DNA of 61,599 bases, counting the filler, from Hausera hauseri (lineage: Eukaryota): assembly GCA_046269625.1 (NCBI GenBank). It is 11 parts of 11 records of this genome, joined end to end, with 100 filler letters (N's around TTAATTAATTAA, not from the genome) between each part and the next. Parts side by side here need not be neighbours in the genome. Positions count along the whole stretch, not along the records: positions 38,916 to 43,918 come from JBJURY010364261.1; 10 more parts are not named here. One strand, given 5' to 3'. The notes beneath the pieces were generated by a model. The model had not been told where the DNA came from. It did not search any database and saw only the letters and a program-made list of their open reading frames with translations. Shown here piece after piece: positions 39,444-41,806 of this stretch. The stretch's first letter is position 1; each line of letters opens with the position of its first letter. Both the position numbers and the translations under genes were made by a program.

Positions 39444-40112
39444 TTAAAACTTTATTATACAAACGACGACAGGCTCTGTATCAGCCGTATCACCACTTTC
39501 ACATCCATCATCAACAACTTCATCAATTACATCAGCAGGACGGGGACTGGCGACTGGACCAGCAACCAACTCATAACGATTAACATCAAGGGCTATCCGG
39601 AGGCGTGGAGAACCGACTGGACGCTGAACTATTCTGGGGTCCAACCACTTTCCTAAAAATAATAAAATACAAATAAAAAACTATATACCTTGTTGCCTCT
39701 TACCTCTTAAGGAAAAACAAATGAGGCAGTCATTCCCCCAATCATAAATTGGAAATGGGTTGTGACTGCACAAGATTTCCTGCCGATGGAGATTATCACA
39801 AATATCCATGGCACTGCTCGAAGGACAACTGTGGACATCTTGAACTCCATCCTCATCATCTGCAAAAACACGTAGTAAGGAGCACAAATGTATCGGATCC
39901 TCTATCTGGTACTGAGTCTGCATCTGCTCGTACAAACGTAATATCTCCTGCATCAGACTCAAATTATGTAAGCATAGTCGAGATACATGCTGGAGATCTG
40001 TAATCTCTTCCGGGGGAAGGTTATCTCTCACTTCAACATTTTTAACGTGGTCACAAAGAGCATCAACAGAATATTGCAACTTTAACAACTTAGATAAAAA
40101 TTCGCCTGGCAT
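39444..40112 (-). CDS. Spliced orphan protein, ~210 aa (exons 40112-39689, 39652-39444)
   Basis: 36-nt AT-rich GT..AG intron 39653-39688 removes a stop and fuses two ORFs in frame; AATAAA at 39451-39456. Confidence 0.7.
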
Positions 40113-40204
40113 AATTAAATAAAACAATAAAGTCAGAAGTATTTATTAAGCTATGTACACACATACACACGCATAAAAAATGAGCACCAATTAAATCACG
40201 ATAA

Positions 40205-41119
40205 TCAAACAGTGTGATGATTGTCAACTCCCCAATCAATGTCAATATCACTATAACGAACATAGGCAGGCTGAGTATCAATTTCAATGGGTGTCGCTCC
40301 TGTATTGAGGAAATCAACTGCCGGAGGAATATAACACCTTTCTGAGCACATATGGAAAGGGGAGAGTACATTGTTATGATAAGTAGGCCGATAATTGGCA
40401 ACATTAGATAAAACAGGGGGACTAACATCATCAAAAGACGGGGAATGGAACAGCTCATCATTTCGGTAGTCACCCGCAACCTCCACACTTAATGATTGAT
40501 TATTAGGGATATAAATTGGAATACCAACAGGCAAAGTATCTGTAACAGGTAATGGTATGGGAATTACAGGAGGCTCATGATACTCCTCAGCAAGACGGCG
40601 GAAATCAACCTTGTTCTCTGTCAAAAACCTATCCCTACTCTCGCCAGTCCTATACAGCATAAAATCCCCAAACTCATATAATAGACAACGTTTCATGCAC
40701 GCCTCCTTTTGGGACAAGTTTATCCTTCGAGGCCAAAAGGACGACTGCGAATTATAAGTAAATATTACAGGGACCGACGACGGGACAACAACACTCTTGT
40801 ACAACCCACGTATAGATCGATTATCATGTACGTGGTTGCACTGAACTATTGCTAGGAAAATATCAGGGCAAACCTCAGAAAATCCAACGTCGTCAAAAAT
40901 TATTAAGTCGTACGATGAAGACCACTCCGCAGGAGTGTCGTGCAAGCTATGGAGGATCAAAGGGTTCTTTCCATGGGAGAGAGCGAAGCATGTTTTGCCT
41001 ATATTGCTGCTCCCAAACAATAAGGCAGTATTTACACCTTGTTCTAAACTAAATTGGAGAGGGAATCGTAAATATATAGTTAGAATTGACAACAATTTTT
41101 GGTTTAAATTTCGACGCAC
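40205..41119 (-). CDS. rep: Rep SF3 helicase domain
   Basis: Walker A GSSNIGKT, Walker B IIFDD, B' IRGLYK, motif C VIFTYN, Arg finger MKRC; Pro-rich tail. Confidence 0.9.
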   Translation of the reverse strand: MRRNLNQKLLSILTIYLRFPLQFSLEQGVNTALLFGSSNIGKTCFALSHGKNPLILHSLHDTPAEWSSSYDLIIFDDVGFSEVCPDIFLAIVQCNHVHDNRSIRGLYKSVVVPSSVPVIFTYNSQSSFWPRRINLSQKEACMKRCLLYEFGDFMLYRTGESRDRFLTENKVDFRRLAEEYHEPPVIPIPLPVTDTLPVGIPIYIPNNQSLSVEVAGDYRNDELFHSPSFDDVSPPVLSNVANYRPTYHNNVLSPFHMCSERCYIPPAVDFLNTGATPIEIDTQPAYVRYSDIDIDWGVDNHHTV

Positions 41120-41806
41120 AATAACTTTGCAATAATTTATGGCGGGTCACAAACTCCGCTCGGTCTCCTTCCTTCATGATATTCATAGCTTCCGAGACCG
41201 AGGGAGCATCATCGAATAACCTATAGAGGGCCTTCCTACTATTATTGTCCTTATTTATGTCGATTGGGGGACTACCGAGCTGCAAGCAAAAAATATTCGG
41301 AGTGACATTCTTGTTGTGATATTTATAGACTGCATAAATGTCACTCCGAAAAGGAATTACATAAACAAAATTGAAAAGACATTTAAATCGATGCAAGCGC
41401 ATCGGATTACGCAGATAAAATAAAAAGTGAAGGTGGTGGAAACCAGATGGAGAAGTATCCGCCACCACCTTCATATAAAATTTATACAAAAGCGACAACC
41501 GAATATAATTGTTTACCAATAAACATAAATCGACAGTTTCATCGAATTTCATAACGGCCATATAGTGGCGAAAGGTTGCTCCCTCTGGTGGCTGTATCAG
41601 TTCATCGAGGGGATCTGGAAATCTTCCTTGCAATGCATTTGTATATTCATCATGGGATGCAAATAATCTTGTGTAGAGACCATTCCTAGCATTGTGGACT
41701 GTGAAATTCTCACGATAACCCTTTGATAAAATAATAATAATAAAATTATTACCAATTGGTTTCTTTCCTCACGAGACATAATTTGGCTGTTAGACGATTC
41801 GGACAT
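41049..41806 (-). CDS. rep: Rep HUH endonuclease domain, spliced (exons 41806-41753, 41720-41049)
   Basis: Motif II GFHHLHFLF, motif III YKYHNK; the 32-nt intron 41721-41752 supplies an ATG start in frame. Confidence 0.82.

Follow-up and report, generated by a model that had tools for sequence, protein, structure and literature searches.

Two short, A/T-rich segments interrupt the minus-strand genes of a virus-like DNA element, and the question they raise is whether these segments are spliceosomal introns and, if so, whose spliceosome would remove them. The element lies on a contig at positions 38916–43918 of the window (the whole stretch of DNA analysed, 61,599 nt), both ends of which fall within genes. 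An earlier note had described the segments as micro-introns in viral genes and as a host fingerprint pointing away from fish.

The window consists of unlinked contigs in series with N44-TTAATTAATTAA-N44 spacers between them, so that adjoining position proves no physical link to any host. No fish-like contig is physically linked to the element, and integration into a fish chromosome was rejected on account of the spacers. By eye, other contigs of the window have a fish-like or mollusc-like appearance. The window also holds pieces of a Nck-associated protein 1 gene (1–9214), repeated close to both contig ends, with a broken Gypsy-like pol between them that resembles a host-gene-in-LTR theme; a decayed Polinton/adintovirus-like piece (21576–27794), in which the protein-primed DNA polymerase is broken and the DNA_pol_B_2 match weak; a degenerate TTCG repeat of ~4.5 kb (27895–32510), with a plus strand nearly without A; and a piggyBac-like transposase frame that stays open for 577 codons (54399–56132) on a contig whose flanks look fish-like.

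Both segments lie on the minus strand and have GT..AG ends. Predicted micro-intron 1 (41721–41752) is 32 nt long, reads TTG/GTAATA..TCAAAG/G and falls in phase 0, with 91% A+T; its acceptor is AAG, a weaker form, rather than YAG. Predicted micro-intron 2 (39653–39688) is 36 nt long, reads AAG/GTATAT..TTTTAG/G and falls in phase 1, with 89% A+T and an in-frame stop inside. Among the 887 GT..AG pairs of 25–60 nt found on the contig (both strands), the segments rank 1 and 4 by A+T content, and the pair ranked 2 is nested within segment 2. Across the 2.4 kb coding unit (39447–41806) there are just two runs of 30-nt windows with three or fewer G+C, and these are the two segments. No CTAAC-like word was seen by eye in either. 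When the islands were shuffled 5000 times, frame-restoring GT..AG ends appeared in 7.6% and 14.1% of the shuffles.

Removal of the segments joins coding frames that are under selection, as judged from sister copies and frame arithmetic. The earlier note was right about the place, length and near-pure A/T composition of both segments, and its claim that removing each fuses the flanking frames is borne out at both junctions. Its picture of viral genes with two introns has to be amended, since the segments belong to two different genes, and a third junction, between the Rep endonuclease and helicase frames, is needed that neither segment explains. The spliceosomal reading, as a prediction, gains support from composition, frame, sister-copy variation and the placement of poly(A) and TATA signals, more firmly for the 36-nt than for the 32-nt segment. 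Both are likely to be true U2-type micro-introns; for segment 2 alone an intron is very probable, and for segment 1 it is probable.

The case for segment 2 comes from ORF2. Its Cys/His-rich exon 1 (39689–40112, minus) starts with the ATG at 40112–40110, and predicted exon 2 (39444–39652, minus) runs 209 nt to the stop without an ATG of its own. The in-frame stop of the ORF at 39681–40142 sits inside segment 2, and beyond it the frame is open to 39444, an openness seen in 2.6% of shuffles. One of the contig's two minus-strand AATAAA words lies at the end of exon 2 (39451–39456); the other lies past the Rep stop (40142–40147).

Sister copies were taken from one DNA run containing the contig. In all, 366 contigs align to the element contig at 85% identity or more, and 229 align on 39440–41840 at 80% or more, 120 of these being less than 90% alike; judged from these alignments, the element is a family of many diverged copies. 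For indels, 12 of 27 rows were shown, picked by support, and placement is ambiguous in A/T runs. Six of these 12 fall within the 36-nt segment, which still gives P 3e-6 when the full 27 rows are counted; the remaining six represent a net 9-nt in-frame insertion in ORF2 exon 2 of one sister contig. Depth tags suggest that intron 2 measures 37 and 38 nt in two sister copies, although alignment in the A/T run is loose, and these lengths would shift the frame unless the segment were spliced. In the sister-copy rows shown, the interior of intron 2 varies freely in length, unlike the exons.

For substitutions, 40 of 414 rows were shown, picked by support, together with one from the wider contig alignment; 40 fall within four exon stretches. 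Thirty of these 40 exon changes are synonymous in the predicted frames, versus 8/40 and 4/40 in the other frames and a random expectation of 20–25%. By stretch, the synonymous changes number 3/5 in ORF2 exon 1, 5/7 in the Rep endonuclease frame, 18/22 in the Rep helicase frame and 5/7 in ORF2 exon 2 (P 0.012). The last count includes the one change outside the 40, a silent third-position change in the junction codon that is present in 17 contigs. Intron 2 is well supported because sister indels pile up inside it and the downstream exon is under coding constraint; splicing would be the simplest account of an exon 2 under selection. ORF2 has no Pfam match, and none of 13 candidates in viral contigs proved to be a viral relative. 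Its start lies about 90 nt past the Rep stop, directly behind a poly(A) signal (40113–40204), and no TATA-like box was found for it. The layout of Rep and ORF2 might be that of a flatworm operon, which trans-splicing could resolve.

Segment 1 lies at the start of Rep. Predicted exon 1 (41753–41806, minus) offers two start codons, one at 41806 (54 nt ahead of donor 1) and one at 41779 (27 nt ahead), and both keep phase across the segment. A TATA-like box (41842–41848, minus) lies upstream of this exon; unspliced, the frame meets a stop after 69 codons. The base directly past the acceptor is a codon start of the Rep endonuclease frame. Counted from the acceptor, that frame has its first ATG at residue 54, which falls on motif I in the alignment and inside a core strand predicted by the structure model (residues 49–58). 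Intron 1 is likely because this first in-frame ATG cuts into the first of the core strands predicted for Rep. In 4.0% of shuffles the 53 codons ahead of this ATG stay open, and the residues upstream of it bring no gain in profile score (45.2–46.0 bits). No sister indel falls inside intron 1 among the 12 shown of 27 indel rows; one diverged sister contig extends into it, with two gaps at places not given.

The endonuclease and linker frame of Rep (41049–41720, minus; elsewhere given as 41049–41768) matches CRESS Rep clusters in the Atlas (0.96), and its structure model (pLDDT 78) matches circovirus Rep and plasmid RepB folds. The helicase frame (40205–41146, minus) carries Walker A, Walker B, motif C and an arginine finger, and gave 291 matches at E ≤ 0.001, the best at 35% identity; Viral_Rep or Gemini_AL1_M is carried by 16 of the 20 top matches scanned. 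HUH motifs I–III and the SF3 helicase motifs are all present, with motifs II and III invariant in a 14-row alignment, and by these matches Rep is CRESS-type. Among database proteins, its closest relatives are unnamed and environmental. No close relative of the endonuclease frame was found among 80 candidates in a 5.8-billion set or 122 in metagenome contigs, nor any close relative of the helicase frame among 39 candidates in viral contigs, and a sequence search of solved structures returned no close relative.

The two Rep frames are separated by a frame break within 41050–41110 (minus) that is not an intron. With a profile built from 123 related Reps, models with X at the break reach 171–174 bits, versus 155 bits for the best of 38 frame-restoring GT-AG models. 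A nuclease-helicase intron of the genomovirus/mastrevirus type was rejected on this score, its best GT-AG model lying 19 bits below the frame-break model; the rejected stretch is moderately A/T-rich and has a CTAAC word inside. One sister contig aligns gap-free across 41074–41291. The junction fits better as a break of the present copy, through mutation or assembly error, than as a genomovirus-type intron. Given this break, and a divergent gene that also contains a stop (below), the present copy is probably damaged, though the family is under selection.

Matches to the nonanucleotide core number 18 in the whole window, versus 11 expected, and none is in a clear stem at the element. A perfect, G/C-rich intergenic palindrome lies at 42342–42360 (fold z −2.5 for 42320–42480), a similar word at 39226–39238 between two converging genes, and a 27-bp inverted repeat at 41952–42020; these are possible origin or promoter elements.

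Two further genes are cut by the contig ends. On the left is the 3′ end of a second SF3 helicase (38916–39155, plus), of papillomavirus E1/parvovirus NS1 type and known here from its C-terminal 79 codons, with a predicted poly(A) signal (AATAAA, 39151–39156, plus) overlapping its stop. No close relative was found among 25 candidates in viral contigs or 11 in longer proteins. The longest inverted arms on the contig are 39 nt, and the two helicase genes have no long inverted repeat lying between them. On the right, a divergent gene of three overlapping frames (42715–43918, plus) follows a TATA-like box (42678–42684, plus); the stop at 43757–43759 belongs to the present copy, and the frame of sister contigs continues past this point. 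Frame arithmetic is the sole basis for two candidate introns in this gene. Candidate intron 3 (42809–42897, plus; 89 nt, CAG/GTAAAA..TTTAG/G) joins frames in phase, while candidate intron 4 (43241–43275, plus; 35 nt) is a weak one, with a GTAAGA donor that contains the stop of the upstream frame and two earlier AGs that compete. The plus-strand frames 42870–43244 and 43070–43759 overlap by ~170 nt, like densovirus-type overprinting. The divergent gene has no Atlas match and none of 35 candidates in viral contigs was a close relative; on this incomplete contig no capsid gene was recognised, the element's other genes having no Pfam, Atlas or viral match.

Alignment-based scans found 41 loci, 18 of them viral and 23 from metagenomes, at 27–40% identity; at E < 0.05, neither ORF2 nor the divergent gene has a counterpart in any of them. 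One of the 41, L015, was the sole locus examined further. Its end leads to one record of two segments, L043 (5699 bp) and L042 (1911 bp), with terminal inverted repeats common to both. The L042 helicase carries PPV_E1_C and Parvo_NS1 domains, its alignment with the second helicase of the window covers 51 aa at 39% identity (E 1.6e-6), and the L043 Rep matches the window's helicase frame (E 1e-6). The divergent gene also has a 15-aa motif in common with a long, divergently oriented ORF of L015/L043 (pairwise E 0.002; 6.7e-4). The reversed-query control for the L042/L043 matches gave a best E of 0.016. PEVE, an element of the planarian Girardia tigrina, is described as having terminal inverted repeats, a small segment, and PPV_E1_C and Parvo_NS1 domains (PMC3198968). 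The layout of L042 and L043 fits that description. The primary PEVE study is said to report a two-helicase element of 7.5 kb. On gene content and similarity, the element of the window is likely a distant relative of PEVE.

For the L015 Rep, the highest-scoring model has a GT-AG intron of 56 nt that separates motif I from motif II (208.8 versus 205.6 bits, a lead of 3 bits). Trees built by a quick method, from 79 and 49–50 rows chosen from 150 matches, place the Reps of the window and of L015 together in one broad group, whose members are unnamed Reps, on long branches and not as sisters; no supported sister of the window Rep appears in them. At the terminal-repeat edge of L043, a 32-nt GTAAGA..TTTTACAG segment (217–248, minus), third by A+T among 366 candidates, may be a micro-intron. 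In six environmental loci (L025, L026, L029, L034, L040 and L041) the nuclease and helicase parts of Rep are in different frames, and some of these Reps may be spliced or broken.

Which host would splice such introns? The next contig of the window (44019–48815) carries a SET1 gene. Its top 21 of 120 listed matches are all neodermatan flatworms (77–82% identity), the best being a monogenean, and the next after the flatworms among those listed is an insect (75%). On this match a neodermatan (parasitic) flatworm is present in the data set. The SET1-like gene and a Sec61-gamma-like gene on the same contig contain seven introns (four bracketed by homology, three by frame) of 41–54 nt, none of 32–36 nt, with 60–74% A+T where measured; they are a ready reference for the intron class of that flatworm. 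Published intron modes are 32/58 nt in Gyrodactylus salaris, where the short mode dominates first and second introns (PMC4040987), 36/73 nt in tapeworms (PMC5036155) and 37/90 nt in Opisthorchis felineus (PMC6530080). Vertebrate introns are reported as mostly >75 nt, with a lower bound near that length (PMC9438311), and those of myxozoans as having medians of 22–27 nt, with myxozoans and dicyemids below 30 nt (PMC13644364).

The statement that vertebrate spliceosomes do not normally take introns of 32–36 nt, and that flatworm peaks lie near this size, agrees with these values (short modes of 32–37 nt versus >75 nt). The published flatworm modes fit the element; the neighbouring flatworm introns, at 41–54 nt, are longer. 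As a host fingerprint, the introns do point away from fish, a direction backed by the PEVE-type gene set and the neodermatan in the data, but length alone is not specific to flatworms: it excludes fish and names no host by itself, because myxozoans go lower still. Gene set and co-occurrence in the mixed data set make a parasitic flatworm the likely host.

The explanation we consider probable is that the segments are U2-type micro-introns removed by the host spliceosome, in a two-helicase, virus-like DNA element whose host is likely a parasitic flatworm. Host RNA polymerase II would transcribe Rep from the TATA-like box at 41848, and removal of intron 1 would join a start exon of 9 or 18 codons to an HUH frame without a usable start. 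Removal of intron 2 would drop the in-frame stop and extend ORF2 from 143 to 210 residues, ending at the poly(A) signal at 39456. The introns of the element would have settled at the minimal size of the host, since flatworm spliceosomes routinely handle the 32–37-nt class.

The introns could also be real and the host another small-intron eukaryote of the mixed sample, such as a myxozoan, protist or fungus. The window mixes contigs of different organisms, myxozoan intron medians of 22–27 nt are on record (PMC13644364), the nearest Rep relatives are unnamed environmental proteins, and the neighbouring flatworm introns are longer than those of the element. Such a host is nevertheless unlikely, given that the two-helicase gene set matches the PEVE-type record, that PEVE and PIVE were reported from planarians (PMC3198968), and that a neodermatan flatworm is in the data. 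A second alternative is that acceptor 41721 serves mainly for spliced-leader trans-splicing, the 32-nt island being partly outron rather than cis-intron. Flatworm leaders are described as ending in AUG and as extensively sharing acceptors with cis-splicing (PMC12582326), and since the intron 1 junction is in phase 0, a flatworm leader could also start Rep in frame. However, the island has a GT donor at its 5′ edge, two in-frame ATGs and a TATA-like box lie upstream, and segment 2 is left unexplained; trans-splicing, which would still imply a flatworm host and is compatible with cis-splicing, is quite unlikely to be the main role of this acceptor. Very unlikely are A/T-rich insertions or slippage tracts with GT..AG ends and frames by chance, which a copy with a frame break, a premature stop and shuffle frequencies of 7.6% and 14.1% might suggest, yet the joint chance is about 1%, segment 2 recurs with varying length in diverged sister copies, and its downstream exon is constrained and without a start codon. 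An adomavirus or other fish virus was rejected, as Rep matches the CRESS type and introns this small fall short of the vertebrate range.

A wider proposal can be put forward tentatively: rather than an isolated planarian case, PEVE could be the first known example of an old and still unclassified family of flatworm DNA viruses with two helicases, maintained in free-living and parasitic lineages alike. Introns would have been gained independently and sized to each host's spliceosome (32–36 nt in the present element, 56 nt in the PEVE-type record), so that intron length could assign orphan DNA viruses in mixed samples to their hosts. Little is known of the DNA viruses of parasitic flatworms, which host-parasite sequencing easily credits to fish. 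With split genes and no close relative among 1.8 billion representatives, the element is missed by gene callers and protein databases, and intron size would be a cheap signal for host assignment. The main texts of openly available papers searched contained neither a parasitic-flatworm relative of PEVE nor an element of this kind with micro-introns. A PEVE-like element with flatworm-sized introns would be a second branch of a type found, in that literature, only in planarians.

Like the PEVE type, the element combines a CRESS-type Rep with an E1/NS1-type helicase and has a long gene transcribed away from Rep, and as in the PEVE-type record L015/L043, a short GT-AG intron is predicted in Rep. 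Unlike it, the helicases are 27–39% identical, ORF2 has no counterpart, and the window intron is 32 nt and precedes motif I, whereas that of the record is 56 nt and lies between motifs I and II. The helicase genes of the window abut tail to tail without a long inverted repeat between them, and the element has many diverged copies and a likely host that is a parasitic rather than a free-living flatworm. Its introns share length class, GT-AG ends, A/T bias and first-intron position with flatworm micro-introns, but those were described for host genes, and the ~90% A+T of the element's introns is above that of the neighbouring host introns measured. Micro-introns alone would be no surprise to a flatworm genomicist.

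The Rep introns of Genomoviridae, Mastrevirus and the other groups named below lie between the nuclease and helicase parts and are about 90–200 nt long, unlike the predicted 32-nt intron ahead of motif I in the window, where a frame break is the better fit for the junction of nuclease and helicase. Such introns have been described in Genomoviridae, Mastrevirus, Becurtovirus, Capulavirus and Grablovirus, with a separate intron in a circovirus Rep (bioRxiv 10.1101/687855), and common to all is a CRESS-type Rep expressed via host splicing (predicted here). DiCV of the fluke Dicrocoelium lanceatum likewise links a CRESS-type Rep with a parasitic flatworm, with sequences also found in worm genomes, but it is a 2.4-kb circovirus-like circle with Cap and a TAGTATTAC origin, and its main text does not use the word 'intron' and, in the parts available, does not describe a second helicase (PMC10269781). 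Micro-introns and spliced Reps are thus already known, and the new part is the PEVE-like element.
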